Part shown: positions 2,470 to 46,698 of the stretch, piece after piece | Layout: every line of letters starts with the position of its first letter | Numbering within the stretch: position 1 is the stretch's first letter | NCBI RefSeq assembly: GCF_024298885.1 | Contig: NZ_CP101166.1 | Location: 2,291,149-2,355,148, forward strand | Direction of reading: 5' to 3' | From: Haloglomus halophilum | GTDB taxonomy: Archaea; Halobacteriota; Halobacteria; Halobacteriales; Haloarculaceae | DNA: 64,000 nt | Made by a program: the position numbers and the translations under genes | Notes under the pieces: generated by a model | The model's input: the letters and a program-made list of their open reading frames with translations, nothing else | Told to the model about the DNA's origin: nothing | Databases searched by the model: none

Positions 2470-3047
2470 GCGACGACCTGGCGGGCGAGTCGCTCGGCGG
2501 CACCGACGACGCGCCGGACCACACGCTGCTCCGGCTGGTGCATCTCTCGACCGCGCCCGACCTCCAGGCGATGGACGTGAAACGGCGGGCCGAGGGCCGG
2601 CTGCTCGACGCCCGCGCCGACGTGCGCGTCATCGGGAGCTCGCACTGTCTGAGCCTGCCCGATGCGGGCTTCCACGAGCTCTGCTCCTGCCGGGCCCTTC
2701 CGGAGCTGGGCGTCCACCCCCCCGAGGAGGCGGCCGAACCCGATGGCGGCGTCCCGACCACCGCGGCGGGCGAGCAGGGCGCCGTGTCGCCCCGCCGGAT
2801 TCCGCTCTCGCCCGGCGTCGAGCGGACCCTGACGACCACGACGGGCGAGGTGCGCGCCGCCACGACGGTCGAGGGGCTCGGGCTGGACGCGTTCCCCGCC
2901 GACCGCGACTTCGATGTCCGTTACCGGTTCGGTCCGGATGCCGTCACCGCCATCACGCTCGACGGCGACCGGTTCGAGACCTACCACACCTACCCGGAGT
3001 TCGACCTCGCGCTCCGCTCGGAGACGGTGCTGACCCGGCTGAAGTGA
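2466..3047 (+). CDS. hypothetical protein, translationally coupled to the upstream gene (GTGA start/stop overlap)
   Basis: GTG at 2466 overlaps the TGA of the 592-2469 gene; 193-aa ORF, the tail of track ORF 1701-3047. Confidence 0.45.
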   Translation: MSDDLAGESLGGTDDAPDHTLLRLVHLSTAPDLQAMDVKRRAEGRLLDARADVRVIGSSHCLSLPDAGFHELCSCRALPELGVHPPEEAAEPDGGVPTTAAGEQGAVSPRRIPLSPGVERTLTTTTGEVRAATTVEGLGLDAFPADRDFDVRYRFGPDAVTAITLDGDRFETYHTYPEFDLALRSETVLTRLK

Positions 3048-4053: not shown

Positions 4054-4069
4054 CGCCCGGTGACGGTCG

Positions 4070-4142
4070 CGCCGCCCGGACGACGACCCGCGCCGCCTGG
4101 ACGACGACCCGCGCCGCCTGGACGACGACCCGCGCCGCCCGG
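4070..4142. repeat. perfect tandem repeat, 21-bp unit GACGACGACCCGCGCCGCCTG x3 plus a partial unit
   Basis: Direct reading of 4079-4141: three units, the third differing by one base. Intergenic, immediately 3' of the 3088-4053 gene. Confidence 0.9.
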
Positions 4143-4217: not shown

Positions 4218-6614
4218 GTGAACGCACCAGTCCGTGCCATGTCCGACGAACAGGAGGCAGGTCCCGACCCCGACGCTGGCGGGGGTGGGGGGACGACACC
4301 CGAGGACGGCGACGGCTCGGTCGCCGATACGACTGCCGAGCCCCGCACCGACCCCGGCGACCTGCCCACCTACGACGACGTAGCGACCGCGCGGGAGGTG
4401 CTCCGCGCGTCCCCGGCCGAGCGCGACGAGCGCGGCCTCACCGACGACGACGTGCGGGCAGCGTTCCGGACGGTCATCGACGAGGGTGACCGGGAGGAGA
4501 AGGACCTCTCGGGGGTCACGCTCCCGGCCCTGGACCTCGATTACGAGGTCGTCGACGGGACGAACAAGCACCCAGTCGACCTCCGGGGGGCGACCGTCGA
4601 GAAGCTCAGCGCCGAGCGGGGAACCATCCGGATTCCCCTCCACCTCGAGGACGCCACCGTCGGCGATATCCAGCTGGAGGGCGCGCACGTCACGCAGGAC
4701 CTCATCCTCGACGACGCGACCGTCACCGGCGACGTGGACACGTTCGAGGCCGTGTTCGACGGCGACCTGGAGTGTCGCGGGACCACGTTCGAGGGCGCGG
4801 TCGAACTGGACGAGGGCTCGTTCCACGACGACGTGAGCTTCGACGAGGCGACGTTCGAATCAGGGTTCGCCGCCCGGAACGCGGAGTTCTTCGGCGAGTC
4901 CCATCTGCTGGACGACAGCACCAGCTTCGACGAGGCGACGTTCGCCGGCGAGGCGGACCTCCGGCACACGGACTTCGGCTACGCCCGGTTCGAGGGCGTG
5001 GCCTTCGAGAGCGACGCGACGTTCGAGGAGGCCGACTTCCGGGGCGATGTCGAGTTCGATGGCGCGACGTTCGGTGACGAGGCGGACTTCGACGAGATAC
5101 GCTTCGGCGGGGACGCCTCCTTCGCCGGCGTGACGTTCGGCGGCCTGGCGCACTTCCGTGGCTCCGTCTTCGAGGGCGGGGCCCGAGTGCTGGAGGCCGA
5201 TGCCGCCTTCCAGGACGTCTCCTTCGAGGGCGAGGCGGACTTCACCCGCGCCGGCTTCCGGGTGGCGGACTTCACGGGCACGTCGTTCGCCGGGCCGGCG
5301 ACGTTCACGGAGCTCGCGGCGAGCGACGACCTGACCCTCGCCGACTGCGAGTTCGACGCTGAACTCCACGCCGAGGAGGCGGTTCTCGACGGAGACGTGG
5401 ATGCCACGGGCGCGGCGTTCGCTGCGCCGGTCGTCTTCGAGGAGGCGGAGTTCGGCGACGACGCCTCCTTCGCCGACTGCCGGTTCGATGCGCTGGCGGA
5501 TTTCGACGAGGTGCTGTTCGACGGCGACACCACCTTCGAGGCCGCGACGTTCGAGGACGAGGCCGACTTCCGTGGGACCGAGTTCCTGGGTGACGCCAAC
5601 CACCTCGCCGACGGCATCTCGTTCGCGGACTGTCGGTTCGAGGCGCACACGGACTTCGACGACGCGGCGTTCACCTCCGCGGACTTCGGCGGCGTCACCT
5701 TCGGCGCGCCCGCGGATTTCACGGGCGCGACCTTCGACGACCGGCTCGTCTGCCTGGCCAGCGCGACCACCGCCGCGACGTATCTCGACTTCACCGACGC
5801 GAAGATCAAGCGCGGCCGCATCGTCCAGCCCGAATCCAGCTGGATCCACTACGACATGACCCGTGCCAGCCTGGGTGACGTGGCGCTGGATGCCGAGCGC
5901 GAGTCGGACCGCCGGGAGCTGCTGGACTACTTCCGATTCTGCAACACGGAGTTCGACGAGTTCGACGGCCTGGCCTTCGACTTCTCGGACCACACCGACT
6001 ACCTCGACCGCAACGAGTGGGTGCTCCACGACTTCACCGAGAACGACGCCGCCGACCACGAGTTCGCCGTCGAGATGACGCCGGGGGTGACCGAGACGAC
6101 CTACCTGAAGGCGAAGAACGCCGCCTCCGCGGCGGGGGAGATGAAGGCCGCCGGCGAGTTCCGCGTGAAGCGGCAGGCGTTCTCGCGCCGGAAGCACATC
6201 GACATCGCCAAGGACCCGAGCGTGAGCCTCGGCGCCAGGCTCCAGAACGCCGCGAGAGCCGCCGAGAACGGATTCCTCGGGCTCACCTGCGGCCACGGGA
6301 TGCGCCTGATGCGCATCGCGCTGGTCTTCCTGCTCGCGCCGCTCCTGTTCGTCCCCTTCTACACGTTCGGCGGCCCGGCGTTCGCCACCACCACCGGCCA
6401 GCTGGACTCGCTCTCCGAACTGGCGACCCCTGCCGGGCAGGAGGTGCTGCTCGGCAACATTCACCTCAGCTACATCTCCTACACCACCATCGGCTACGGG
6501 AACGAGGCGCCGACCGCTATCGCCGGGCGGCTGATGGCCAGCAGCGAGGCCTTCCTCAGCACCGTGCTCGCGGCGCTGGTCGTCTATGCGCTGGTCAAGC
6601 GCTCGGAGCTGTAG
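4218..6614 (+). CDS. pentapeptide-repeat beta-helix protein fused to a C-terminal 2-TM potassium-channel pore domain (TTIGYGN selectivity filter)
   Basis: About 350 residues of xxFxx pentapeptide repeats (ATFES/GFAAR/ADFRG...). C-terminus: TM1 LMRIALVFLLAPLLFVPFY, pore helix plus filter HLSYISYTTIGYGNEAPTAIAGRL, TM2 FLSTVLAALVVYALV. Aligns with the KcsA-type TVGYGD...GR pattern. Confidence 0.75.
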   Translation: MNAPVRAMSDEQEAGPDPDAGGGGGTTPEDGDGSVADTTAEPRTDPGDLPTYDDVATAREVLRASPAERDERGLTDDDVRAAFRTVIDEGDREEKDLSGVTLPALDLDYEVVDGTNKHPVDLRGATVEKLSAERGTIRIPLHLEDATVGDIQLEGAHVTQDLILDDATVTGDVDTFEAVFDGDLECRGTTFEGAVELDEGSFHDDVSFDEATFESGFAARNAEFFGESHLLDDSTSFDEATFAGEADLRHTDFGYARFEGVAFESDATFEEADFRGDVEFDGATFGDEADFDEIRFGGDASFAGVTFGGLAHFRGSVFEGGARVLEADAAFQDVSFEGEADFTRAGFRVADFTGTSFAGPATFTELAASDDLTLADCEFDAELHAEEAVLDGDVDATGAAFAAPVVFEEAEFGDDASFADCRFDALADFDEVLFDGDTTFEAATFEDEADFRGTEFLGDANHLADGISFADCRFEAHTDFDDAAFTSADFGGVTFGAPADFTGATFDDRLVCLASATTAATYLDFTDAKIKRGRIVQPESSWIHYDMTRASLGDVALDAERESDRRELLDYFRFCNTEFDEFDGLAFDFSDHTDYLDRNEWVLHDFTENDAADHEFAVEMTPGVTETTYLKAKNAASAAGEMKAAGEFRVKRQAFSRRKHIDIAKDPSVSLGARLQNAARAAENGFLGLTCGHGMRLMRIALVFLLAPLLFVPFYTFGGPAFATTTGQLDSLSELATPAGQEVLLGNIHLSYISYTTIGYGNEAPTAIAGRLMASSEAFLSTVLAALVVYALVKRSEL

Positions 6615-14702: not shown

Positions 14703-14815
14703 AGCAGAGATATAGCTGATACTGGCCAGATATCGGTGTAGTGGGCGAAATCCTGCAGTAATTGCGAGGGGATCTCGAGAACACTGCTTTCCCGCCCGAC
14801 GAGTATGCCGCCCTC

Positions 14816-15025
14816 CTACACCGATTTCTCGCTGATACCGATGGAGAGGACGCCGATGACGACGGTGATGACGCCGACGGTTCCGAGGACGATCTGGAGC
14901 GACTCGGACTGGACCCCAGCGAAGGTGAGCAGGCCGAGGATGAGCACTCCCGCGAGGAAGAGCACCGCGCCGCCGCCGACCTTCTCTTTCTCACCCAGTG
15001 CGTCGAACCGTTCGGTCACGCTCAT
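14816..15025 (-). CDS. small membrane protein (2 TM), hypothetical
   Basis: 69-aa ORF with two hydrophobic helices. Confidence 0.4.
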   Translation of the reverse strand: MSVTERFDALGEKEKVGGGAVLFLAGVLILGLLTFAGVQSESLQIVLGTVGVITVVIGVLSIGISEKSV

Positions 15026-20552: not shown

Positions 20553-21041
20553 CTACACCGTCTCCTCGACCACCCGCAGCGCCGTCGGGCCGTCGCGTCG
20601 CGGCACGACCACCACGAGGCTCTCGTCGGTCGCGCCGGCCGCGTTCACGTCGATATCGTCGATGCGGAGGCGGTCGAGGACGGTCGCCAGCTGGACGGGG
20701 TCGAGGTCGCCGGTCGCGACGATACCGGTGTCGTCGCCGCCGGTCGGCGCGAGGATGGTGCCACCGACCGAGAGGACGGCGTCCGCGCGGTCGTCCGTGG
20801 GGCCGATGCCCGAGCGCATCTCGACGCGGGCGCTCGCGTCGGCGGTGGTGGGCTCGTACTCGCCGAGTTCGTCGGCGTAGCGGCGGAGCGCGGCCGCGAC
20901 GGCCTCGTGGTCCTCGTCGCTCCCGTCGCCCACGTCGAGGTAGCGGGCCGCGGCGGTGAAGTTGACCACGCCCGCCTGGAGCGCGGCGTGGAGGAAGGGC
21001 CGCGCGTCGACGGCCTCGCGCGTGTCGGCTGCCAGCGTCAT
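20553..21041 (-). CDS. hypothetical protein
   Basis: 163-aa ORF starting MTLAADTREAVDARPFLHAAL; no known motif recognised. Confidence 0.4.
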   Translation of the reverse strand: MTLAADTREAVDARPFLHAALQAGVVNFTAAARYLDVGDGSDEDHEAVAAALRRYADELGEYEPTTADASARVEMRSGIGPTDDRADAVLSVGGTILAPTGGDDTGIVATGDLDPVQLATVLDRLRIDDIDVNAAGATDESLVVVVPRRDGPTALRVVEETV

Positions 21042-21106
21042 GTGTTGGTGCGCTCGTGGAAGCGTCGTCAACGTGTTGGTGGGGGCAGAACGCTCCTGGC
21101 GATTCC

Positions 21107-21440
21107 GGTGGCGCTGCTTTCGATGGAACCGGATAGAAAGCCCCCGACCGCTCGACCAGCCGCGGCTCGCTGCGGTCCTCGGTCGCTCACTACGTTCACT
21201 CCCTGCGGTCCTTGTGTCGCCGGGGCTGGGTCGAGCGGCCGGCCCCTTTCAGTCCCGCCCTGTGGCCTGTTCGGGGTAGCGCTCGCGCGTGGTGGTTCCG
21301 GCCGAGCAGGGTATCCCCACCCCTCCCCGCGCGGGCGCCGAGAACGGCTCACCCCCTCGGCCGGAGGCCTCGGGGTTCACCGCGAGTGGCGCCCGCGCGC
21401 TTCCTGCTCCCGGAACCGGTCGGCCAACCAACCGCCCCAC
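21107..21440 (-). repeat. hairpin-rich intergenic repeat element, copy R1 (core about 21133-21267 plus extension to about 21440)
   Basis: The reverse complement of 21133-21267 aligns nearly base-for-base with 23713-23836 and 46366-46492 (GGGACTGAAAGGGGCCGG...CTCGAC...GCAGGGAG...GCGCAGCGAG...TCGAGC...GGGGGCTTTC). The extension 21268-21440 matches the reverse complement of 46205-46360. Confidence 0.75.
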
Positions 21441-21537
21441 GGCCGGGAGCGCGTGGCGCAGCGCGGACGCGCAAGCCCGCGCGACACGGGGAAGGGCAGG
21501 GCCGCCGCGAGCCTCCACACTCCACGGTCGGGTGGGA

Positions 21538-21700
21538 ATGGAAGGGGCCGCGGGCTCGACCCTGCCCGGACGACGCAAGCAGCGGGGCGCTACGCGCCCC
21601 GGGCGAACGGCGAAGCCGTGAGCACCACAGGGTGAGCGAAGCGAACCCGAGGAGCGCAGCGAGGCCCGGCAGGTCGAGCCCGCGGGGGCTTCCTATCTAT
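21538..21700 (+). repeat. repeat element copy R2 (degenerate/rearranged), forming an inverted pair with R1
   Basis: Contains GGAAGGGGCCGCGGGCTCGAC...ACGACGCAAGCAGC...GAGCGAAGCGAACCCGAGGAGCGCAGCGAGGCCCGGCAGGTCGAGCCCGCGGGGGCTTCC, matching the core motif order. Confidence 0.6.
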
Positions 21701-21788
21701 CCCACTCTGCGGTCACTGAGTTCGCAAATTATTGTCCAATCTGGCGATTAAATATTTTATTCTATGGTTTCGATAAGATAGAGCCGAA

Positions 21789-22670
21789 TTACGCGATAAC
21801 CAGCCACGCACCGAACACGGCGAGTGCCCCGAGCGCCGTGCTCCCGACCGCGTGCATCCGGAGCCGGTCCAGAAGCTGGTGTGCCTCGCCCTCCATATCC
21901 TCCAGCTCCGCGACCTGTCCGACCTCCCCACCCAGCTCGCACTCGGGCAGGAAGTCCATCGCGAGGTGGAGGAAGATGCCGGCGGCGAAGCCGAACACCG
22001 CCGCACTGACGTTGTCCGACAGCGGCGGCTGGATGGCGGCCACCGGGATGGCCGTGAGCGCGACGCCGGCGGCCGGGAGCAGCAGGAGCGAGATGCGCTG
22101 GCCCTCGTGGCGGAGGCGGCGGGCAGCCGCGTAGCCCGCGGGCCCCTTGTGCGAGACGATGGCGAGGCCGAGCAGGAGGCCGGGGTCCGGGAGCGCGGCG
22201 TAGATGACGCCGATGATGAGTCCCGCGGCCAGCGAGTGCGCGGTGAGCTCGACTGCGGCGGAGTTGACGCCGTCGACGTGCGCGAGGCGGTGACTGACGG
22301 TGTGGGAGGCGTAGCCCGCGAGCAGCCCCGCGGCGACGCCGAAGCCGCCGATCTGTCCGCCGAGACCGAACGCCTGCGGCAGGAGGAAGACGGCGGCGGA
22401 GGTGACCATCGCGCCGGCCGCGAGGCCGTAGCCCCACACCAGCCCGAACGCGTCGCGGGTCCGGGCGGCACGGTTGCCCAGCAGCGCGGCGCCCGCCATC
22501 GCGACGAACGCGACCCAGCCGACGATCAGGAGCTTCCACAGGCCCTCCGAGACCGCTATCGCGGAGACTGCGAGTAGCCCCACGACGGCCACGGCCCCGA
22601 CCGTCGACACGTCTCCGAGGCTCCCCTCGACCACCGACTCGTCACCGTCCGTCCGTGCCTCCGCACTCAT
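21789..22670 (-). CDS. zupT: ZIP family divalent metal (zinc) transporter
   Basis: HSLAAGLIIG, HKGPAGYAAA, FLHLAMDFLPE: ZIP signature helices with His/Asp/Glu metal ligands. Confidence 0.8.
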   Translation of the reverse strand: MSAEARTDGDESVVEGSLGDVSTVGAVAVVGLLAVSAIAVSEGLWKLLIVGWVAFVAMAGAALLGNRAARTRDAFGLVWGYGLAAGAMVTSAAVFLLPQAFGLGGQIGGFGVAAGLLAGYASHTVSHRLAHVDGVNSAAVELTAHSLAAGLIIGVIYAALPDPGLLLGLAIVSHKGPAGYAAARRLRHEGQRISLLLLPAAGVALTAIPVAAIQPPLSDNVSAAVFGFAAGIFLHLAMDFLPECELGGEVGQVAELEDMEGEAHQLLDRLRMHAVGSTALGALAVFGAWLVIA

Positions 22671-22760
22671 GTTGATAATAACTCTATGGCGCTAGTTAAT
22701 AGAACTGTCGGGGTGGCGTGCGTGGAGTTGTTAACCGGCGGGGTCGGTGCGGCGGCCTGG

Positions 22761-23447
22761 TCATCCCGTCGCCTGCTTCCACGCCCGCAGGTCCAGTACG
22801 CCGCCGTCGAGGTCCTCGGCTGGCGCCTCGGTGGCGGCCCAGTGGAACAGGTCCGCGACCTCTTCGGCGTCGCGTCCGGGTCCCTCCCCGGTCAACTCGG
22901 TCGAGACCTGCCCGGGGTCGACGACGCCGACCGGCACGTCGAGGTCGGCGGCGAACTGCCGGGCGAGTGCCTCCGCGAGCCCCTTCGACACCGCGTAGCT
23001 CCCGAACCCGGCCTTCGCGTCGCGGGCGATGCTCCCGGAGGGCACGAGCACCCGCGCGTCGTCGGCGAGGTGGGGGACGGACTCGCGGATGGTGGCGAAC
23101 ACGCCCCGGCCGTTCGTGCGGAGGTGGTCGTCGAACGCGGCGTAGGACTCGTCGGCGAGCGGTGTCGCTCCCGGGTCGCCGTGGTAGACACCGGCGTTGG
23201 CGACGACGAGGTCGAGCGGGCCCCCCGCCCGGGCGGCCGTCTCGGCGAATCGCTCGACATCGAACTCGTCGCGCACGTCCGCGCGCTGGGTCGTCGCCTC
23301 GCCGCCAGCCGAGACGATGTCGGCGGCCACCTCGTGGAGGGGATCTTCCTCGCGGGCACAGAGTGCGACGTGCGCCCCCTTCTCGCCGAATCGACGGGCG
23401 ACGGCGGCGCCGATGCCGCGACTGCCACCCGTGATGAGTACGTTCAT
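22761..23447 (-). CDS. short-chain dehydrogenase/reductase (SDR)
   Basis: ITGGSRGIG Rossmann motif, NAG, YxxxK (YAVSKGLAEALARQ). Confidence 0.85.
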   Translation of the reverse strand: MNVLITGGSRGIGAAVARRFGEKGAHVALCAREEDPLHEVAADIVSAGGEATTQRADVRDEFDVERFAETAARAGGPLDLVVANAGVYHGDPGATPLADESYAAFDDHLRTNGRGVFATIRESVPHLADDARVLVPSGSIARDAKAGFGSYAVSKGLAEALARQFAADLDVPVGVVDPGQVSTELTGEGPGRDAEEVADLFHWAATEAPAEDLDGGVLDLRAWKQATG

Positions 23448-23559
23448 GACCCGGGGGACGGCCGGCGGGGGGATGGTCGTTTTCCCCGCGGCAGTCCAGG
23501 TCGCGGATGAGCCGTGTCCGATAGTGTCGAGGGTGGATGCTCCATCTGGTCGTTAGAGG

Positions 23560-23836
23560 TGATGTTTCTCCCAGTCGTTCCACGGTGGAGCGCGACGAAC
23601 AGAGCGGTTGGAAGTCCCTGGTCCCTTCCATTCCCACCCGAAATGCCCGTTCCACGGAGCGTACGCACCGAGCCAGCACGGTGTGAAGCGCCCCTGGACC
23701 GCCGAACCGAGCGGGACTGAAAGGGGCCGGCTGCTCGACGAAGCACGACGACGCAAGCACTGCAGGGAGCGAGCGAAGCGAGCGACCGAGGCGCGCAGCG
23801 AGGCACGCGAGTCGAGCAGCCGGGGGCTTTCAACAG
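23560..23836 (+). repeat. repeat element copy R3 (core 23713-23836 plus upstream related segment)
   Basis: Core GGGACTGAAAGGGGCCGGCTGCTCGACGAAGCACGACGACGCAAGCACTGCAGG...GCGCGCAGCGAGGCACGCGAGTCGAGCAGCCGGGGGCTTTC; the upstream CCCTTCCATTCCCACCC is the reverse complement of 21524-21540. Confidence 0.75.
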
Positions 23837-24231
23837 GTTCCCGTCACTGTGTCACCGCACCGAACACATCGCTGATAGAAACGCATGCTCGTTCTCACGG
23901 GCGAGCGAAGCGGGGTCCATATCCGGACACCATCCGGAGTCGTGACGTAACGGCTAAGTTCGCGGCTCCTGATTCGGCACGTATGCGACGGCGCGCGCAC
24001 GCTCGGTTCCGCACGACGCCGAGCGGCGCGTCCGCCCGTCCGTTCTCGAAGGCCGGGAAGCGCAAGCGCAAGCGTCAGTGATGGCTCGCGGCGGGTTGCC
24101 ACCCCGTCCCGGGCCGCTCCCGGTCGCCCGAACTACAACTACATAGGGGAGCGACCCGACGACCTCCCCACGAACGGCCTCGGCCCGCTCCGCGGCGCCC
24201 GCGGCCACCGACACACCACACGACACCCACC

Positions 24232-25131
24232 ATGACACACGACACCTTCGACGGCGTGTTCCCCGCGATGACCACGCCGTTCCACGATGACGAGAGCATC
24301 GACTTCGAGACACTGCAGGCGAACGCCCGCCGACTGGAGGAAGCCGGCGTCGACGGCGTCGTCCCCGTCGGGACGACCGGCGAGTCCGCCACGATGACCC
24401 ACGACGAGCACGTCGAGGTCATCGAGGCGGTCGTCGAGGCCATCGAGGACGTGCCCGTCATCGCGGGCAGCGGCTCGAACAACACCCGCGAGGCGCTGGA
24501 GCTCTCCCGGCGCGCCGAGGCCGCCGGCGCCGACGCGCTGCTCCTGATCTCGCCGTACTACAACATCCCCGAACCCGAGGGGATGGAGCACCACTTCCGG
24601 CAGGTCGCTGACGAGGTCGACCTCCCGCAGATCATCTACAACGTCCCCGGCCGCACCGGGCGCAACATCGCCGTCGAGACGGCGGTCAACCTCTCCAGCC
24701 ACGAGAACATCGTCGGCTACAAGGCCGCCAGCGGCGACATGGGCCGCATCTGCGAGGTCATCGAGCGGACGCGCGAGGAGAACTTCACCGTCCTCTCCGG
24801 TGACGACGGGATGACCCTGCCCGTCGTCGCGACCGGCGGCACCGGCTGCATCTCCGTCGCCGCGAACGTCGAGCCCGAGCGCACCGTGGAGATGGCCCAC
24901 GCGGCACTGGCCGACGAGATGGACCGCGCCCGCGAACTCCACCACGAACTGGGGCCGCTGTTCCGCACGCTGTTCGTCGAGACCAACCCCATCCCCATCA
25001 AGGAGGCCATGGAGATGCGGGGCCACCATCCGCGAACGATGCGCTCGCCGCTGTCGTACCTGAGCGAGCCGAACCGTGACCGCCTCCGCGAGGTGCTGGC
25101 GGCGCTCGAACCCGTCGACGCCGAAGCATGA
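24232..25131 (+). CDS. dapA: 4-hydroxy-tetrahydrodipicolinate synthase
   Basis: DapA/NAL fold with catalytic Lys region (GYKAASGD) and TTGESATMT. Confidence 0.9.
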   Translation: MTHDTFDGVFPAMTTPFHDDESIDFETLQANARRLEEAGVDGVVPVGTTGESATMTHDEHVEVIEAVVEAIEDVPVIAGSGSNNTREALELSRRAEAAGADALLLISPYYNIPEPEGMEHHFRQVADEVDLPQIIYNVPGRTGRNIAVETAVNLSSHENIVGYKAASGDMGRICEVIERTREENFTVLSGDDGMTLPVVATGGTGCISVAANVEPERTVEMAHAALADEMDRARELHHELGPLFRTLFVETNPIPIKEAMEMRGHHPRTMRSPLSYLSEPNRDRLREVLAALEPVDAEA

Positions 25132-25889
25132 GAGTGATTGTCACCGGCGCGACCGGCCGGACCGGCGGCGAGGTCGCACGCGAGGTCGCAGAGCGCGGCC
25201 ACGAGCTCGTCCCCGTCTCGCGCGAACCCGCCGGCACGGTCGCGGGCGCAGACCTTCGGCCCGCCGAGGACCTGCCCGCACTCCTCGATGCCGAGGGCAC
25301 CGTTCTGATCGATTTCACGGTGCCCGTCGCGAGCGCCGACTACATCGCGCAGGCGGCCGAGGCCGGCACGCCTGCGGTCATCGGTACCACCGGCTTCGAC
25401 AGTGAGGGGACTGCCGCGCTGGACGCCGCCGCGGAGTCGATCCCGTTGCTGAAGGCCGCCAACTTCGCCCGCGGTGTGCAGGCGCTGCTGAACGTGGTCC
25501 GAGAGGCCGCGACGGCGCTCCCGGGCTACGACGTGGAACTGACCGAGACCCACCACAACGGGAAGCGCGACGCTCCGAGCGGGACCGCGAAGACGCTGCT
25601 CGACGCTCTGGACGACGCCCGCGACGAGGCGCTCGACCGGACCCACGGCCGCGAGGGCGAGGACCCGCGTGAGCCGGGGCAGGTCGGCGTTCACGTCCGC
25701 CGGGCGGGCGACGTTCGGGGCGAGCACGAACTCATGTTCGCCGACAACGACGAGGTGCTCACGCTCGCCCATCGCGCCGAGTCCCGCGGCGTGTTCGCCG
25801 CCGGCGCGGTCGATGCAGCCGAGTGGCTTCCCGGGCACGAGGCGGGCTGGTACGAGTTCGGGGACGTTATCGGGGACGGGGGTGACTGA
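25128..25889 (+). CDS. dapB: 4-hydroxy-tetrahydrodipicolinate reductase
   Basis: MRVIVTGATGRTG NAD(P)-binding, ELTETHHNGKRDAPSGTA catalytic motif; ATGA overlap with dapA. Confidence 0.9.
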   Translation: MRVIVTGATGRTGGEVAREVAERGHELVPVSREPAGTVAGADLRPAEDLPALLDAEGTVLIDFTVPVASADYIAQAAEAGTPAVIGTTGFDSEGTAALDAAAESIPLLKAANFARGVQALLNVVREAATALPGYDVELTETHHNGKRDAPSGTAKTLLDALDDARDEALDRTHGREGEDPREPGQVGVHVRRAGDVRGEHELMFADNDEVLTLAHRAESRGVFAAGAVDAAEWLPGHEAGWYEFGDVIGDGGD

Positions 25890-25895
25890 CAACCC

Positions 25896-26729
25896 ATGAG
25901 CACGCTGGAAGCGGACGTGGCGGAACTGGCAGCGCGGTACGATGCCGGCAACGTCGACGCGGTCGGAAGCGAGGAGCTGGATACGCTGGAGGCCTTCCTC
26001 GATGCCCTCGAGTCGGGCGAGATTCGCGCCGCTGAACCCGGCGACGACGGCTGGGAGGCCAACGAGTGGGTCAAGCGCGGCATCCTGCTCAACTTCGGCC
26101 TGCGCGATATCCAGGCCTACGAACACGGCGGCGTCACATATCACGACGTCCTGCCGCTGCGCGAGACCGGCGACCTGCCCGAGCGCGGGACCCGCAACAC
26201 CCCGACCGGCACCGTCATCCGCCGGGGCGCGTACGTCGGTGCCGACGCCATCATGATGTCGCCCGCGTTCGTCAACATCGGCGCCCACGTCGGCGACGGT
26301 ACGCTGGTCGACTCCTGCGACACGGTCGGCTCCTGTGCCCAGATCGGCGACGACGTGAAACTCGGCGCGAACACACTCATCGGCGGCGTCCTCGAACCCG
26401 TCGAGGCCGAACCCGTCGTCGTCGAGGACGGTGTCTCGCTGGGCGCGGGCTGTCGGGTCACGTCGGGCTTCGAGGTCGGCGAGAACTCCGTCGTCGGCGA
26501 GAATACGCTCCTGACGCCGCGCATCCCGGTGTACGACCTCGTCGAGGACGAGGTCATCTACGGCCAACTCCCGCCGGAGCGCCGGGCGTTCATCCGGTAC
26601 GTCGAGTCGAGCGTCGGCGAGCACGACCTGTTCGACGGCGGCGCGTACAAGCCAGCGGTCGTGGCGACCCACGTCGAGGAGTCGACGCTGGAGGCGACCG
26701 AGCGCGAGGACGCACTGCGGGACAACTGA
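25896..26729 (+). CDS. dapD: 2,3,4,5-tetrahydropyridine-2,6-dicarboxylate N-acyl(succinyl)transferase
   Basis: Left-handed beta-helix hexapeptide repeats (GAYVGADAIMMSPAFVNIGAHVGDGTLVDS...) with a DapD-type N-terminal domain. Confidence 0.8.
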   Translation: MSTLEADVAELAARYDAGNVDAVGSEELDTLEAFLDALESGEIRAAEPGDDGWEANEWVKRGILLNFGLRDIQAYEHGGVTYHDVLPLRETGDLPERGTRNTPTGTVIRRGAYVGADAIMMSPAFVNIGAHVGDGTLVDSCDTVGSCAQIGDDVKLGANTLIGGVLEPVEAEPVVVEDGVSLGAGCRVTSGFEVGENSVVGENTLLTPRIPVYDLVEDEVIYGQLPPERRAFIRYVESSVGEHDLFDGGAYKPAVVATHVEESTLEATEREDALRDN

Positions 26730-26785
26730 GATTCAGTATGGTTTCCACTCGAACGCACAGCGACGACGGACAACGGCGGAACCTC

Positions 26786-27000
26786 GGAAGCCCTCGCGCT
26801 CTCGACTCGCGCGCCTCGCTGCGCGCTTCGGCCTCGCTTCGCTCGGCCTGCAGTGCTTGCGTCGTCCTCAGAATCGAAGATTCTGCTGGGCTGCGGGAGA
26901 GCTTCGCTCTCCCGAACGGCGTGCTTCGTCGAGAGGATTGTCGGCTCCGCCGACAATCTATTAGCTGGCGGCTTCGCCGCCAGCCGCGCTCGCCCTTCCA
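26786..27000 (-). repeat. repeat element copy R4, inside the lysine operon (dapD-lysA spacer), core interrupted by a 52-nt two-hairpin insertion
   Basis: CTCGACTCGCGCGCCTCGCTGCGCGC...CCTGCAGTGCTTGCGTCGTC[52-nt insert]GTGCTTCGTCGAGAGG is the reverse complement of the R3 core; downstream perfect hairpins GATTGTCGG-ctcc-CCGACAATC and CTGGCGGC-ttc-GCCGCCAG. Confidence 0.7.
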
Positions 27001-27059
27001 GTCCGCCAGGACGTCGCCTGTCACACCGAGCGACGCTACTTGCTGGAGAGGTGCGTGCC

Positions 27060-28376
27060 ATGCCTGATGGCGAGGGCTGGCCGTCGACGACGGACAACCC
27101 GGCGGTCCGTCGGCTCTCGGACTGGCCGGCCGAACCGCTCCGGAACCTGGCCGACGAGTACGAGACGCCGCTGTACGTGGCGGACCTGGACCGCGTGAAG
27201 GCCAACGCCTCGCGGTTGCGGTCGGCGTTTCCGGACGCGGACCTGAGCTACGCGGTGAAGGCCAACACCACGCGGCCGGTGCTAGAGACCCTCGCCGACC
27301 GCGGTGTCGGCGCCGAGTGCGCGGCGGCGGGCGAGGTGAAGCGGTCGCTGGAGGCCGGGTTCCCCGCCAGTCGGGTCCGGTACACGGCGGTCAACCCGCC
27401 GGCACGTGACCTCGACTACGTCTGCGGGCTGGACGCCGCGGACGACATGGTGCTCACGGTCGGCGCGATGGACACCCTGAACCGGGTCGCACAGCGCGGC
27501 TTCCGGGGACGGCTCTGTGTCCGCGTGAATCCGGGTGTCGGCGCGGGCCACCACGCGAAGGTGTCGACCGGCGGGGAGCCGAAGTTCGGCGTCCCGTACG
27601 ACCGGACGGCGGCGGTCGTCGAGCAGGCGCTCGAGCACGGCTTCGAGGTGGTCGGGCTCCACGCCCACGCCGGGAGCGGTATCTCCGGCGACGACCTCTC
27701 CGCACACCGCGAGCTCGTCCGGCGAATGGGCGGGCTCGCGGGCGACGTGGAGGAGAGCCTGGACTTCGTCGCCGTCGGCGGCGGGTTCGGCGTCCCGTAC
27801 CACGAGGACGAGCCGCCGCTCGACCTCGACACGGTGGCCGAGGCGACCCGGGAGGCGTACCGCGAGGGGTGGCTGGAGGCCGTGGCGGGCGACGACGGCG
27901 AGGACGCGCCGGCGCCGCCACAGCTCGCCATCGAGCCGGGGCGCTACTTCGTTGCCGACGCCGGCGTCCTGCTGACGACCGTCAACACCGTCAAGCCGAC
28001 GCCGGAGACGACCGTCGTCGGCATCGACGCCGGGATGACGACCCTGGTCCGGCCAGCGATGTACGACGCCTACCACGAACTCCGGAGCCTGGAGCCGGAC
28101 ACGCCACGGCGCGACGCCGTCGCCTGTGATATCTCCGGGCCCGTCTGCGAGACCGCGGACGTCTTCGCAAGGGACCGACCCCTGCCTGACCCGTCACGCG
28201 GCGACCTGCTCGCCATCGGCAACGCCGGCGCCTACGGCTACGAGATGGCCAGCAACTACAACTCTCGGCCGCGGCCGGCGGTGGTCGCGCTGGAGCACGG
28301 CGAGCCCCGGCTGGCGGCGCGACGCGAGCGGCTGGACGAATTAACCCGGCTAGAATCAGAAGCGGAGGACTCTTGA
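27060..28376 (+). CDS. lysA: diaminopimelate decarboxylase
   Basis: PLP fold-III decarboxylase: SYAVKAN (PLP Lys), GLHAHAGSG, CGPVCE. Confidence 0.9.
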   Translation: MPDGEGWPSTTDNPAVRRLSDWPAEPLRNLADEYETPLYVADLDRVKANASRLRSAFPDADLSYAVKANTTRPVLETLADRGVGAECAAAGEVKRSLEAGFPASRVRYTAVNPPARDLDYVCGLDAADDMVLTVGAMDTLNRVAQRGFRGRLCVRVNPGVGAGHHAKVSTGGEPKFGVPYDRTAAVVEQALEHGFEVVGLHAHAGSGISGDDLSAHRELVRRMGGLAGDVEESLDFVAVGGGFGVPYHEDEPPLDLDTVAEATREAYREGWLEAVAGDDGEDAPAPPQLAIEPGRYFVADAGVLLTTVNTVKPTPETTVVGIDAGMTTLVRPAMYDAYHELRSLEPDTPRRDAVACDISGPVCETADVFARDRPLPDPSRGDLLAIGNAGAYGYEMASNYNSRPRPAVVALEHGEPRLAARRERLDELTRLESEAEDS

Positions 28377-28456
28377 GCGCGACTCACATCTAGCCATCAA
28401 CGAACGACGTGTCAGACGGTCTCACGGGTCGGCACGTCACCCCACGCGAGGACACG

Positions 28457-29422
28457 ATGGTACACATCCAGAAATACCACGGAACGGGCAACGACTTCGT
28501 CGTCGTGGACGCCGCCGAGCGGGTCGGTGACCGGCGGGCGTTCGCACGAGCACTCTGTGACCGAACCACTGGCATCAGCCACCCGGACAGCCCCCACATC
28601 GGGGCGGACGGCGTGCTCTTCCTCCATCTCGAGACGGAGTACGCCTCCCCGCGCGTCGTGATGACGCTCGTCCAGCCGGACGGGTCCGTCGCCGCGATGT
28701 GTGGCAACGGCGCGCGCTGTGCGGCCCGCTGGGCCGCCGAACGCACCGGGAGCGACGAGGTGATGATCGATACGCAGTCCGGGACCCGTCGCGCGGTCAT
28801 CGCACGCGAGGCTCCGGACGACGGCAACCGTGGCCACGGCGACGACCGGGGCTTCGGCGACGATGTCACCATCGAGATGGGTCGCCCGCGGTTCCTCCCG
28901 GGCGCGGTCCCGGTCCAGACGGCCGAACCGCTCGTCCAGGAACACGTCGAGGGCCTCACCGTCACGGCCGTCAACACGGGCGTCCCGCACGCGGTCTCCT
29001 TCGTCGAGGACGTGGACGCGGTGGACCTCGAGGACGTGGCACCCGCGGTCCGACACGCCGACGTGTTCCCGGAGGGCGCGAACGTGACTCTCGCCTCGCG
29101 TGTCGCACCGGTCGGGGACGAGGACGCGGCCTTCCGCCAGCGGACCTACGAGCGCGGCGTCGAGGGTGAGACGGATTCCTGTGGGACGGGTGCGGTCGCC
29201 ATCGCGGCGGTCGCCCACCGACTCGGACGAATCGGAACCGGCGAGACCGTCCGGGTCACCCCGCCGGGTGGTGACCTGTTCGTCACGGTCACCGACGACG
29301 ACGCGCTCCTCCGCGGGCCAGCCGTCTTCGAGTTCGAGGCCGAGGTCCCGGAGCCGGGCGTGGGGCCGGACGCCGAACTGGATGTCGATTTGACGGATGC
29401 GGGTACCAACACGGGCGACTAG
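28457..29422 (+). CDS. dapF: diaminopimelate epimerase
   Basis: MVHIQKYHGTGNDFVVVD opening and two catalytic Cys (CGNGARC, SCGTGAVA). Confidence 0.85.
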   Translation: MVHIQKYHGTGNDFVVVDAAERVGDRRAFARALCDRTTGISHPDSPHIGADGVLFLHLETEYASPRVVMTLVQPDGSVAAMCGNGARCAARWAAERTGSDEVMIDTQSGTRRAVIAREAPDDGNRGHGDDRGFGDDVTIEMGRPRFLPGAVPVQTAEPLVQEHVEGLTVTAVNTGVPHAVSFVEDVDAVDLEDVAPAVRHADVFPEGANVTLASRVAPVGDEDAAFRQRTYERGVEGETDSCGTGAVAIAAVAHRLGRIGTGETVRVTPPGGDLFVTVTDDDALLRGPAVFEFEAEVPEPGVGPDAELDVDLTDAGTNTGD

Positions 29423-29426
29423 ACGC

Positions 29427-30533
29427 GTGAGTGCTGCCCCCGGGTTCGACCCGCTCGGCTTCCACGAGCGTGCCGTCCACACCGCATCCCACGAGTCGGT
29501 CAAGGAGATGCGCGACCTGCTCGTCGAGACGCTGATCGATGCCGGCGCCGACCCACGCGTCGACGACGCCGGCAACACGCTCGCCGTCCGCGAGGGCGAC
29601 AGCGACGGGCCCCACCTGGTTCTCAACACGCACATCGATACCGTCCCGCCGCACGTCCCCTTCGAGACGGCCGAGGACGGCGCCGTCGTCCGTGGGCGCG
29701 GGGCCTGCGACGCGAAGGGGCCGCTGGCGGCGCTGGTCGACGCCTTCCTGAACGCGCCGGTCGAACGGGGGCGCCTGACGCTGGCCATCACGCCCGACGA
29801 GGAGACCACCTCGGCCGGCGCGGACGCGCTGGCGTTCGGGGACGACCCGCTCCGGGCCGACGGCTACATCGTCGGCGAGCCGACGGGGCTGGATGTCTGC
29901 GCGGCCGCCAAGGGCCGGTTCGAGGGGACGCTGACCGTGACGGGCGAGGCTGCACACGCCGCCGAGCCCGAGTCCGGGACGAACGCGCTCCGGGCGCTGG
30001 CGCCGCTGCTGGAGGCGCTCGACACGTTCGATCGGGAGCGCGGCCCCGGGACGGACCCGCAGCTGGGCGCGCCGACGCTGACCGCCACGACGGTCGAGGG
30101 CGGCGAGGCCATCAACCAGCTGCCCGCCGAGGTCCGGGTCGGCATCGACCGCCGGAGCGTCCCGCCGGAGACGGCCGACGGCTTCGAGCGGGCGCTGAAC
30201 GCGCATCTCCGTGCAGCCGCGATGGACGACGCGGGCGTCGAGTTCGCGCTGACCGAGCGCGAGACGCCGTTCCTCGAAGCCTTCGCGACCGACCCGGACG
30301 AGCCACTGGTCGAGACGCTCACCGACGCGTCGGGCGGCGAGGTTCGCGCGTTCGGGGCCGCGACGGAGGCCTCGTACTTCGCCGCGGACGCGCCGACGGT
30401 CGTCTTCGGCCCCGGCGTGCTGGCGGACGAGGAGGGGGCCGTCGCACACGCCGAGCGCGAGTACGTCCGTCGCGAGGAGATCACGGCGGCGGCCGACGCC
30501 GTCCGCGAGACGCTCGCATCGCTGCTGGGGTAG
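29427..30533 (+). CDS. dapE: succinyl-diaminopimelate desuccinylase / M20 family peptidase (start ambiguous: ATG 29397 or GTG 29427)
   Basis: LNTHIDTVPP, GACDAKG, GEPTGLD: M20 metal-binding motifs. Confidence 0.75.
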   Translation: MSAAPGFDPLGFHERAVHTASHESVKEMRDLLVETLIDAGADPRVDDAGNTLAVREGDSDGPHLVLNTHIDTVPPHVPFETAEDGAVVRGRGACDAKGPLAALVDAFLNAPVERGRLTLAITPDEETTSAGADALAFGDDPLRADGYIVGEPTGLDVCAAAKGRFEGTLTVTGEAAHAAEPESGTNALRALAPLLEALDTFDRERGPGTDPQLGAPTLTATTVEGGEAINQLPAEVRVGIDRRSVPPETADGFERALNAHLRAAAMDDAGVEFALTERETPFLEAFATDPDEPLVETLTDASGGEVRAFGAATEASYFAADAPTVVFGPGVLADEEGAVAHAEREYVRREEITAAADAVRETLASLLG

Positions 30534-35599: not shown

Positions 35600-36000
35600 C
35601 TGACGGGCTGTTATTGGCGAATTCAGCGACCGTGGCTGGAGTCGTGGCGTCCATCGAAGCCGGTTGCTTGGTACGGCGGGGAAACTTCCGATCCGCAATC
35701 GGATCAGAATCGAGCGGTTGCGTACGCGCGAGCAGGCGGGAACTCCGTTCCCGGAGCCCGCGGCGAAGCCGCGGACAGGGCGGGACTCCGTCCCGCTTGC
35801 AGTCGGACGTAGTCCGACGACGAAGCGAGCGCGTTTGGGTTCGAGACGGCTTCGCCGTCTCGTCCTCCCGAAAATCTCCGATTTTCGGAGACACCAGCCC
35901 GAGCGACCGAAGGGAGCGAGGGCTGGCATTTTCTCTGAACGTTTTTGCGACGAGCGGTGTCCACAGGCTCACGCCTACGGCGCGAGTCGAGGGCACCCGA
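35600..36000 (+). repeat. hairpin-dense intergenic region, loosely related to the R-family repeats (R5); possible structured RNA
   Basis: Perfect hairpins GTCGGAC-gta-GTCCGAC, CGAGACGGC-ttc-GCCGTCTCG, CGAAAAT-ctccg-ATTTTCG, GCCGCGGC-gaa-GCCGCGGAC; shares GACGACGAAGCGAGCG and GCGCGAGTCGAG with the core. Confidence 0.45.
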
Positions 36001-46204: not shown

Positions 46205-46492
46205 TCAGGCTGGTTCCGAGAACAGGAAGCGCGCGAGCGCCCACCACCGAGACCGCGACCGGGGGGAGCGTGTCGAGGTAATCGGCGCTCGCGCGGGGAG
46301 GTGTGGGGACCCCGCGCTCCGCTGGAACCGCCACACGCGAACGCTCGGTGCAACCAGCCACAGGGTGGGACTGAAAGGGGCTGCACGCTCGACGAAGCAC
46401 GGCGACGCAAGCACCGCAGGCCGAACGAAGTGAGGCCGCGGCGCGCAGCGAGCCGCGCGAGTCGAGCGTGTAGGGGCTTTCTACAGTCGCTG
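46205..46492 (+). repeat. repeat element copy R6 (extension 46205-46360 plus core 46366-46492), upstream of rpl15e
   Basis: Core CCACAGGGTGGGACTGAAAGGGGCTGCACGCTCGACGAAGCACGGCGACGCAAGCACCGCAGG...GCGCGCAGCGAGCCGCGCGAGTCGAGCGTGTAGGGGCTTTC, over 85% identical to R3; extension equals the reverse complement of the R1 extension. Confidence 0.75.
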
Positions 46493-46698
46493 TCCACCAC
46501 TTGCGGCTCCACCTCTCTCACGCCCACGTTCCGAAGCCCTTAGAAGCCCGAACCAAGAAGATAGCTCCAACTCGTCGGTCGCGGGCACCGACGGGCACCT
46601 GCTACGGCAGGATGGAATGTGGCCAGCGGGGGCGAAGCCCCCGGAGAGGCGGCGCAGCCGCCGATGGGCTGAACCACGCAACGCCCGCGGTGACACAC

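Follow-up and report, generated by a model that had tools for sequence, protein, structure and literature searches.

The 64,000-nt stretch of the Haloglomus halophilum genome analysed here (contig NZ_CP101166.1; hereafter the window, whose numbering is used unless another locus is named) carries, in the 330-nt spacer between dapD and lysA of its lysine (dap) operon, one copy of a previously uncatalogued hairpin repeat that is conserved across the class Halobacteria. In this copy, which we denote copy D, two kinds of haloarchaeal hairpin DNA repeat are nested to form a composite. The first is a long imperfect hairpin, present in dozens of genera of Halobacteria and dispersed in their intergenic DNA. 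The second is represented by four hairpins added to copy D, which belong to another widespread class with perfect stems and C(GNA)G triloop caps. An earlier sequence-only reading had placed a repeat copy in minus orientation in this spacer, and the sequence itself, a profile hidden Markov model (HMM) and a covariance model (CM) all agree with that placement; what it missed was the main point, namely a class-wide, structurally conserved family together with a second widespread class of GNA-triloop mini-hairpins.

The reading that we favour, and hold to be the probable one with only modest confidence, is that the family is an archaeal DNA hairpin repeat of the kind known in bacteria as repetitive extragenic palindromes (REP), bacterial interspersed mosaic elements (BIME) and REP doublets forming hairpins (REPIN), that by description it comes closest to the SMR-A group of Haloquadratum, and that the dap operon tolerates it.

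Structure of copy D and of its family

Copy D is 224 nt long owing to two insertions and lies antisense to the operon. Its parts are listed below by position; copies A, B, C and E are the other family members in the window, L-numbers denote the haloarchaeal loci compared with the window, and P0 and P1 are the two outer helices of the element.

26786 to 27009, minus strand: copy D, delimited by nhmmer and CM matches and by alignment to copies A, B, C and E and to the orthologue L001
26786 to 26806, minus strand: 3' end of the element (GGAAGCCCTC on the plus strand; 3' strand of P0, GC variant) and left arm of P1 (GCGCTCTCGAC), assigned from the sequence
26807 to 26866, minus strand: conserved core, containing GCGCAGCGAG and CGACGCAAGCAC as invariant blocks (element strand) and GCGAAGC as apex (CM, model positions 27-105, 42.5 bits)
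26867 to 26920, minus strand: insertion 1, 54 nt, which holds hairpins hp1 and hp2 (alignment to copy B; perfect stems)
26869 to 26885: hp1, CAGAATC-GAA-GATTCTG, perfect stem, RNA folding energy -6.1 kcal/mol
26894 to 26914: hp2, CGGGAGAGC-TTC-GCTCTCCCG, perfect stem, -17.3 kcal/mol
26921 to 26935, minus strand: remainder of the core, GTGCTTCGTCGAGAG, including the right arm of P1 (GTCGAGAG), by alignment
26936 to 26985, minus strand: insertion 2, 50 nt, which holds hp3 and hp4 inside the right arm of P1 and is absent from copies A, B and E and from L001
26936 to 26958: hp3, GATTGTCGGC-TCC-GCCGACAATC, perfect 10-bp stem, -16.4 kcal/mol
26964 to 26984: hp4, GCTGGCGGC-TTC-GCCGCCAGC, perfect stem, -19.0 kcal/mol
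26986 to 27009, minus strand: degenerate 5' motif, GCGCTCGCCCTTCCAGTCCGCCAG on the plus strand (family consensus GGGYGGGACTGAAAGGGGC on the element strand), by alignments

The sequence-only reading had described a core split by a 52-nt module of two perfect hairpins and followed by two more. All four hairpins are present. Measured against the canonical copy B, however, the first module is two nucleotides longer than stated; the third hairpin had been transcribed one base short, and the last two hairpins do not follow the element but form a second insertion within an arm of its main helix. The view that the element is modular at the level of hairpins holds, with two insertions that each carry two perfect hairpins. 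A second copy of none of the four was found in the window, and we rejected the idea that they are mobile modules copied within it. The core motif CCTGCAGTGCTTGCGTCGTC (26847-26866) occurs again at 23747-23766 on the minus strand and, with two mismatches, at 46401-46420, where 0.01 occurrences are expected by chance.

Alignment of 15 sequences from different genera yielded one long imperfect hairpin of 31 pairs, 16 of them with compensatory changes, and a CM built from this alignment recovered 121 copies in 79 sources. In the CM alignment of these copies, paired cells reach 93.1%, compared with 72.3% in shuffles, and the covariation score is 0.474, compared with 0.135 in shuffles (none of 500 reach the observed value) and at most 0.066 with slid partners; double changes occur in 23 of the 31 pairs. 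Complete copies are 98-127 nt long, apart from a few outliers of 131-169 nt with inserted hairpins. Read on the element strand, they begin with a tail, GGGYGGGAC, and the closing helix P0 (UGAAAG/CUUUC), which in copies C and D and in L001 is replaced by a GC variant through a shared compensatory change (UGGAAG/CUUCC; TGGAAG/CTTCC as DNA). Inside P0, a 3x3 loop of G residues leads to P1, whose 8 pairs are hypervariable but always complementary (97% paired; as many as five pair types in one column). Beyond P1, short helices are separated by the invariant purine-rich loops CGACGCAAGCAC and GCGCAGCGAG, and the element is topped by a variable apical hairpin, the apex of which is literally GCGAAGC in copies B and D and often so in the family. 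Among copies whose apical stem has at least 3 bp, 17 show a GNA triloop on the element strand and 3 a TNC triloop; the pair that closes the loop is C-G in 24 of 30. The GC content of the element is 63-80% although its host flanks range from 47% to 72%.

The pairing constraint appears to act at the DNA level. RNA selected on one strand normally tolerates G.U pairs far more than A.C mismatches. A sequence-only HMM alignment of 95 distinct copies contains 1644 Watson-Crick stem pairs, 29 G.U and 26 A.C, and because G.U and A.C are equally rare, the constraint would lie on DNA or on both strands. An alternative is that of a structured RNA: the family would consist of small RNA genes, or of a cis-acting untranslated-region element that works on one strand, and copy D would be an antisense or decayed member. 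Very strong covariation combined with invariant single-stranded blocks is a classic signature of functional RNA, and the apex loops are indeed strand-asymmetric; one pair of columns (55/211) holds 36 U.G cells on the sense strand, and several plasmid copies follow a same-strand gene at 50-140 nt. The orientation of monomers between co-directional genes is also more often sense than antisense (16 versus 7, counted with our own gene caller at sites that are not all independent). Yet half of all sites are inverted dimers, any transcript of which would contain one sense and one antisense copy; no TATA-like box was seen upstream of the copies inspected, no Rfam family corresponds to the element, and copy D, like its orthologue L001, runs antisense to the operon in which it is transcribed. 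Furthermore, a GNA triloop with a C-G closing pair is a DNA-stability motif that is much weaker in RNA (PMC13037366). Taken with the ratio of G.U to A.C, these points lead us to regard an RNA family as unlikely.

Distribution, dimers and mini-hairpins

In a blastn search of the plasmid database PLSDB, copy B matched plasmids from many haloarchaeal genera over nearly its full length, at 70-85% identity. With a consensus query, 117 places in 92 plasmids from more than 30 genera were matched, including Haloferax volcanii pHV4 (14804-14908) and one Halobacterium salinarum plasmid, and ~65 further loci came from metagenomes, by a scan for the exact motif with the family HMM as filter. In ten gene-annotated plasmid records the match falls in unannotated intergenic DNA, except in DL31, where the hypothetical open reading frame (ORF) Halar_0093 overlaps it; this ORF (L052, 3591-4124) is probably a spurious call caused by the repeat. 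Gene contexts were taken from a six-frame codon model that recovered 59 of 62 annotated genes. Predicted genes overlapped the element at only 6 of 84 sites, and 58 sites comprised 38 tandem, 10 divergent and 10 convergent contexts against a background of 125, 56 and 37, so that no significant terminator-like or promoter-like bias towards gene 3' ends or promoters was found at these 58 sites.

Several leads on the origin of the family were followed and rejected. All 20 viral-contig matches to a 15-mer were chance matches, none of which passed the family HMM. The 110 genes nearest to chromosomal copies fell into 144 Pfam families, none of them seen more than three times, which leaves no candidate for a linked gene or an autonomous parent, and the families listed for these neighbours include no transposase (tnpA, tnpB and the REP-associated tyrosine transposase, RAYT, among those looked for). 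No Rfam model matched at its gathering score, and none related did so at E ≤ 10 over 21000-27200. No description of the family was found in the literature searched on multicopy structured RNAs of Halobacteria, archaeal REP and RAYT, IRS names and extragenic palindromes; searches with the motif GGGACTGAAAGGGG and its variants returned only irrelevant primer matches, and a lead on 5S rRNA expansion segments gave nothing relevant.

At least 29 loci hold head-to-head dimers, in which a minus copy, 18-29 nt and a plus copy make up 228-315 nt in total. The symmetry of the dimers reaches outward, as AACAGC-nn-GAAAGCCCC...GGGGCUUUC-nn-GCUGUU, and target duplication is absent: 22 complete dimers lack flanking direct repeats, their flanks being inverted instead (AACAGC...GCTGTT). 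Identity between the two arms of a dimer is 72%, no higher than between arms taken from unrelated dimers (72%), and every arm carries a P1 sequence of its own. Each monomer thus folds on itself, and we rejected the REPIN model of the dimer as one long hairpin.

On plasmids, a short subfamily (~105 nt, without the apical hairpin) lies at a fixed distance of ~530 nt from a divergent ~290-aa gene for an OB-fold protein resembling single-stranded DNA-binding protein (SSB) in many genera. The arrangement looks like a conserved plasmid module, although the Pfam matches to the OB-fold are weak (E-values from 7.6e-06 to 2e-03) and do not reach the curated cut-offs. Modules of this kind are the following.

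L055, 1577 to 2473: short-subfamily plasmid module
L056, 1672 to 2538: short-subfamily plasmid module
L057, 1582 to 2442: short-subfamily plasmid module
L052, 2642 to 3541: short-subfamily plasmid module

The mini-hairpins were defined as perfect stems of at least 7 bp with a GNA or TNC triloop, with dinucleotide shuffles as the null. The window contains 13 of them, compared with 1.0 ± 1.0 in shuffles (13-fold), four of the 13 being in the dapD-lysA spacer; they sit in copy D, in the insertion of copy C, in an array at 35690-35930 and in the eL15 leader described below. Other haloarchaeal loci, 0.95 Mb in total, contain 75 where 14.8 are expected; 20 of these 75 are located in a family element or within 300 nt of one. 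Arrays of mini-hairpins are frequent, as in Halococcus L022, L085, L124 and L147, and purine-rich 5' arms such as CGAAAATC, CGAGAGAGC, CGAAAGRCC and CGGGAGAGC recur. The unrelated copies L075 and L108 each carry two mini-hairpins, separated by TGATCA, in the element apex, and a similar insertion is found in the unrelated copies L117 and L094; nesting in the long hairpin is therefore recurrent and not peculiar to the dapD-lysA locus. One array in the window is free-standing.

35690 to 35930, between two minus-strand genes: array of at least six perfect mini-hairpins with 7-9-bp stems and TCC, GAA, GTA or TTC triloops

One hairpin of this array, CCGAAAATC-TCC-GATTTTCGG, turns up again in almost the same form in Halococcus and in unrelated metagenome contigs.

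A window with 69.6% GC might be expected to yield palindromes by chance in GC-rich, low-complexity intergenic DNA, and shuffled versions of the dapD-lysA spacer still fold at -138 kcal/mol on average. We give this explanation almost no weight, because it is already refuted by the excess of mini-hairpins over shuffles, by family E-values down to 5e-28 and by covariation across genera.

Mini-hairpin DNA of the form GCGNAGC is exceptionally stable, its RNA version being much weaker, and natural GNA mini-hairpins occur at priming sites on single-stranded DNA (ssDNA) and in hairpin promoters, where SSB binds poorly (PMC13037366). The stability of d(GNA) loops is reported to depend on the closing base pair (PMC3201870). 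By sequence, the hairpins studied here share the GNA loop (GAA, GGA, GCA, GTA) and the C-G closing pair. Unlike the known natural examples, which are solitary sites in origins and promoters of phages or plasmids, they have longer stems (7-13 bp) and are numerous, arrayed and nested in another repeat.

Within the window, HMM and CM searches detected exactly five family copies in 64 kb (E-values 5e-28 to 6e-8), all of them intergenic. The four besides copy D, with the extension modules attached to two of them, are as follows.

21134 to 21260, minus strand: copy A (CM, 110 bits)
21261 to 21350, minus strand: 5' extension module of copy A, ~90 nt, shared only with copy E
21530 to 21695, plus strand: copy C, head-to-head partner of copy A (CM, 57 bits)
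23709 to 23833, plus strand: copy B, a canonical monomer (CM, 119 bits) in the divergent region between a short-chain dehydrogenase/reductase gene (minus strand, by Pfam) and dapA (plus strand)
46276 to 46362, plus strand: extension module of copy E, shared only with copy A
46363 to 46483, plus strand: copy E (CM, 127 bits), between phoU (Pfam PhoU) and the eL15 leader

Copies A and C form a head-to-head pair with an expanded centre, and copy C has inserted hairpins of its own, GGGGCGC-TAC-GCGCCCC and ACGGC-GAA-GCCGT (hmmalign and sequence). The GC-rich extension module of copies A and E has no further copy in any locus compared. The eL15-Euryarchaeota ribosomal protein leader (RF03144, 46598-46680, 38.7 bits) lies 115 nt downstream of copy E. 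A scan of the window for tRNA and tmRNA genes found none. Other repeats in the window are unrelated to the hairpin family: a 21-nt tandem repeat in three copies (4068-4142), about eight diverged ~49-nt repeats at 4793-5570, whose spacings are multiples of 3 and which probably encode a repeat protein, and tandem repeats of 18 nt and of 42-90 nt at 56440-56710.

The dapD-lysA spacer and the lysine operon

The genes around copy D, all on the plus strand, and the translation signal in front of lysA are listed below.

24232 to 25131, plus strand: dapA (Pfam)
25128 to 25889, plus strand: dapB (Pfam)
25896 to 26729, plus strand: dapD, tetrahydrodipicolinate N-succinyltransferase, the gene 5' of the spacer (Pfam THDPS_N_2 and Hexapep)
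27045 to 27053, plus strand: Shine-Dalgarno-like sequence GGAGAGGTG, 7 nt 5' of the lysA ATG and kept in the Haloglomus relatives (sequence and spacer alignment)
27060 to 28376, plus strand: lysA, diaminopimelate decarboxylase (Pfam Orn_Arg_deC_N and Orn_DAP_Arg_deC)
28409 to 29422, plus strand: dapF (Pfam)
29397 to 30533, plus strand: dapE-like M20 gene (Pfam)

The end of dapD at 26729 and the lysA ATG at 27060 bound the 330-nt spacer. In most other genera that have lysA after dapD, the two genes abut or overlap, with a spacer of ~0 nt, which agrees with the earlier view that, compared with other genomes, the repeat is an insertion. Among DapD sequences, the closest come from Haloglomus (94%, 92% and 91% identity), and the orthologous spacers in this genus differ in length and content. 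L041 has 82 nt with only an end of the element, L002 (H. irregulare) has 156 nt that lack the core but include both ends and the left P1 arm, and L001 has 225 nt with a plain element whose P1 sequence is the same as that of copy D; the window has the enlarged form. L002 and L041 were considered as empty sites and rejected in view of the element end and left P1 arm that are kept: since L002 keeps one P1 arm, they are deletion remnants, and the element was present in the ancestor of the clade. Copy B is absent from its position in L002 and L041.

On this evidence, the element would have entered the junction of formerly abutting dapD and lysA genes in an ancestor of this Haloglomus clade. It would afterwards have been partly deleted in L002 and L041, have stayed plain in L001 and have been enlarged here, where four perfect mini-hairpins with a purine-rich 5' arm and a GNA or TNC triloop appear to have been added at two points.

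Archaeal transcription termination depends on oligo-T tracts. No run of four or more T occurs on the plus strand anywhere in 26730-27059, so the spacer does not qualify as an archaeal intrinsic terminator, and no TATA-like box was seen in it. The kept Shine-Dalgarno-like site and the missing T-tract make read-through with internal initiation likely. Judged from these signals, transcription of the dap operon most likely passes through copy D, and lysA would be translated from its own Shine-Dalgarno site.

Folding energies, which the sequence-only reading had proposed as a check, were computed for the spacer. As mRNA it folds at -162.5 kcal/mol (z = -4.4 relative to shuffles), the other strand being about as stable, and without the two inserted blocks it folds at -94.7 kcal/mol. 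Such an intercistronic structure could in principle attenuate or terminate transcription, or shield dapA-dapB-dapD from 3' decay, and thereby set unequal enzyme levels, as REP and BIME do in Escherichia coli operons. The energy gained by the insertions, the perfect hairpins, most of them at -16 to -19 kcal/mol each, and the position of copy D between dapABD and lysA-dapF-dapE would all suit such a role. However, no oligo-T tract follows any of the hairpins, the Shine-Dalgarno-like site of lysA is retained, close relatives manage with spacers of 82-225 nt that lack the hairpins or even the core, and the family as a whole has no preference for gene 3' ends. Strain polymorphism of the spacer was looked for and not found: a single further contig shares an identical DapD, and its spacer is identical too, the contig being 0.6% diverged elsewhere. 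Zero differences in 330 nt, where ~2 are expected, is not significant. An operon-control role for the spacer is in our estimate as unlikely as an RNA family, and a regulatory interpretation of copy D is unsupported so far. The spacer structure may possibly have a part in transcript processing or decay. Under the favoured reading of a tolerated DNA repeat, the antisense RNA structure of -162 kcal/mol would be a passenger that modulates processing or decay at most.

Upstream of dapA, 23940-24231 forms a conserved leader found in several haloarchaeal genera, with no Rfam match. Its counterparts are L002 4058-4340 and L041 4022-4317, with weaker ones in L036, L018, L027, L009 and L010. About 23 nt after a promoter-like CAACGGCTAAGTT, an ATG (23983) starts an ORF of 32 codons, MRRRAHARFRTTPSGASARPFSKAGKRKRKRQ, whose stop is at 24079-24081; L036 and L018 retain the K-R-K-R C-terminus, and a conserved hairpin comes next. 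The leader is a candidate for a lysine-rich leader peptide or attenuator, or for a basic microprotein, ahead of the lysine operon.

Relation to known repeats and significance

Of the repeat systems compared, the family works most like REP, BIME and REPIN, yet it differs from them in size, tag and doublet pairing. Like them, it consists of multi-copy, intergenic, GC-rich imperfect palindromes without coding capacity, which occur singly or as inverted pairs with a short linker, also inside operons; the hairpin is kept by compensatory change, no target is duplicated, and high copy number is combined with intergenic confinement. Bacterial IS110-family elements target REPs, and elements of this insertion sequence (IS) family also land in the present repeat. 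In L058 (Halomontanus), one with the ends ATGGAAATTCTGCT and AGCAGAATTCCCAT sits inside the 5' motif and splits it between GGGTGGGA and GGTGAAAGGGGC. The IS110 landing sites are L058 ~1590-3010 and L199 ~950-2500. The H. volcanii plasmid pHV4 carries the gene for the ISHvo9 transposase ~390 nt away from an intact copy.

The differences are equally clear. At 98-127 nt the element is three to four times longer than the 20-40 nt of REP; instead of a GTAG/CGTC tag it has the conserved ends GGGYGGGACTGAAAGGGGC and GGGGCTTTC; the members of a pair fold alone and do not pair with each other; the internal loops are invariant and the sequence is conserved over a whole class, not one species group; and RAYT, the single-copy Y1 HUH transposase that cognate REPs flank, is missing from the families listed for the 110 nearest neighbour genes.

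SMR-A of Haloquadratum walsbyi (HqIRS42, HqIRS43 and HqIRS55) comprises elements of ~110 bp (HqIRS55, 109-122 bp) with prominent inverted terminal repeats and no target duplication, which insert into palindromes and whose mobilisation has been called 'enigmatic' (PMC3119063). Compared by description and not by sequence, the present family shares the length of ~110 bp, the inverted terminal repeats, the absence of target duplication, copies in the tens, nesting with palindromic elements and a haloarchaeal host. SMR-A copies are, however, near-identical and specific to Haloquadratum (PMC3119063), whereas the present family has ~72% identity across Halobacteria and is itself the recipient of insertions. 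No Haloquadratum replicon is among the plasmid matches listed or the top organism names, and the low-GC contigs L168 and L162 carry the element.

Two further identities were rejected. Miniature inverted-repeat transposable elements, too, are small, non-coding, palindromic repeats of haloarchaeal genomes, but here the 22 complete dimers have no direct repeats, and no parent IS sharing the ends was seen. The IS200/IS605-derived palindrome-associated transposable element (PATE) HqIRS54 has ends that the end motifs GAAAGCCCC and GCCCYTTCAG resemble. A PATE, however, has specific terminal oligonucleotides and two subterminal palindromes in direct orientation where the present element has a single full-length one, and neither tnpA nor tnpB is among the families listed for the 110 neighbours.

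As an archaeal counterpart of REP, BIME and REPIN, the element would be non-coding and non-autonomous, and its hairpin would matter as DNA, single-stranded or in cruciform, where complementarity would be kept. It would spread or persist in intergenic DNA with local gain, enlargement and erosion, and its patchy presence suggests that it is mobile. Several points weigh against this reading. No mobilising enzyme was identified; RAYT classes are not seen in Archaea, where only IS200-type Y1 transposases are known (PMC6006769). Neither a target-site duplication nor a clean empty site was found, and the copies within one genome are only ~72-85% identical, active mobile families usually being far more uniform. 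The sense bias of monomers between co-directional genes belongs here as well. Moreover, the C(GAA)G loop also occurs in a genuine RNA, the eL15 leader hairpin CGGGGGC-GAA-GCCCCCG (46627-46643), and asymmetric internal loops that are conserved class-wide imply selection beyond a bare hairpin.

A further alternative is that the family and the mini-hairpins are signals on host or plasmid ssDNA, that is, priming or restart sites or SSB-free hairpin promoters like the phage G4 origin, ssiA and the phage N4 promoters. GNA mini-hairpins have exactly such roles in known systems and are poorly bound by SSB (PMC13037366), the pairing constraint is strictly Watson-Crick, the loops are strand-asymmetric, and the short plasmid subfamily keeps its distance from the OB-fold, SSB-like gene. 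We nevertheless find this explanation very doubtful: chromosomal copies are not linked to replication genes and occupy ordinary intergenic DNA, an inverted dimer presents both strands, and the OB-fold matches are weak. A broader proposal, by analogy with the same systems, would treat the family and the mini-hairpins together as a class-wide ssDNA signal and not as selfish DNA, in which SSB-free hairpins would recruit a primase, polymerase or recombinase as an archaeal analogue of the G4 origin, ssi sites and hairpin promoters, and in which stems would arise by fold-back synthesis at C(GNA)G loops. We consider it a speculative and rather improbable idea. If true, fold-back (template-switch) synthesis at these loops would explain both the perfect, unique stems and, with no need for selection on RNA, the 'compensatory' changes.

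For the dap operon, the lesson is one of caution, in that a striking set of stem-loops need not be a regulator. For the Halobacteria, one constrained hairpin family can be traced across an archaeal class, including the genetic model H. volcanii, whereas REP, BIME and REPIN have long been studied in bacteria and an archaeal equivalent has hardly been described. The family offers a clear secondary structure, a dimer form, a nested second class of repeats and a natural series of gains and losses at orthologous sites. It makes tractable the questions of what binds or moves the element, whether it acts as DNA or RNA, and whether GNA mini-hairpins form in vivo at 4 M salt. For annotation, a CM of the family would account for many of the long intergenic stretches that look 'empty' in haloarchaeal genomes, and would clear away spurious ORFs such as Halar_0093.

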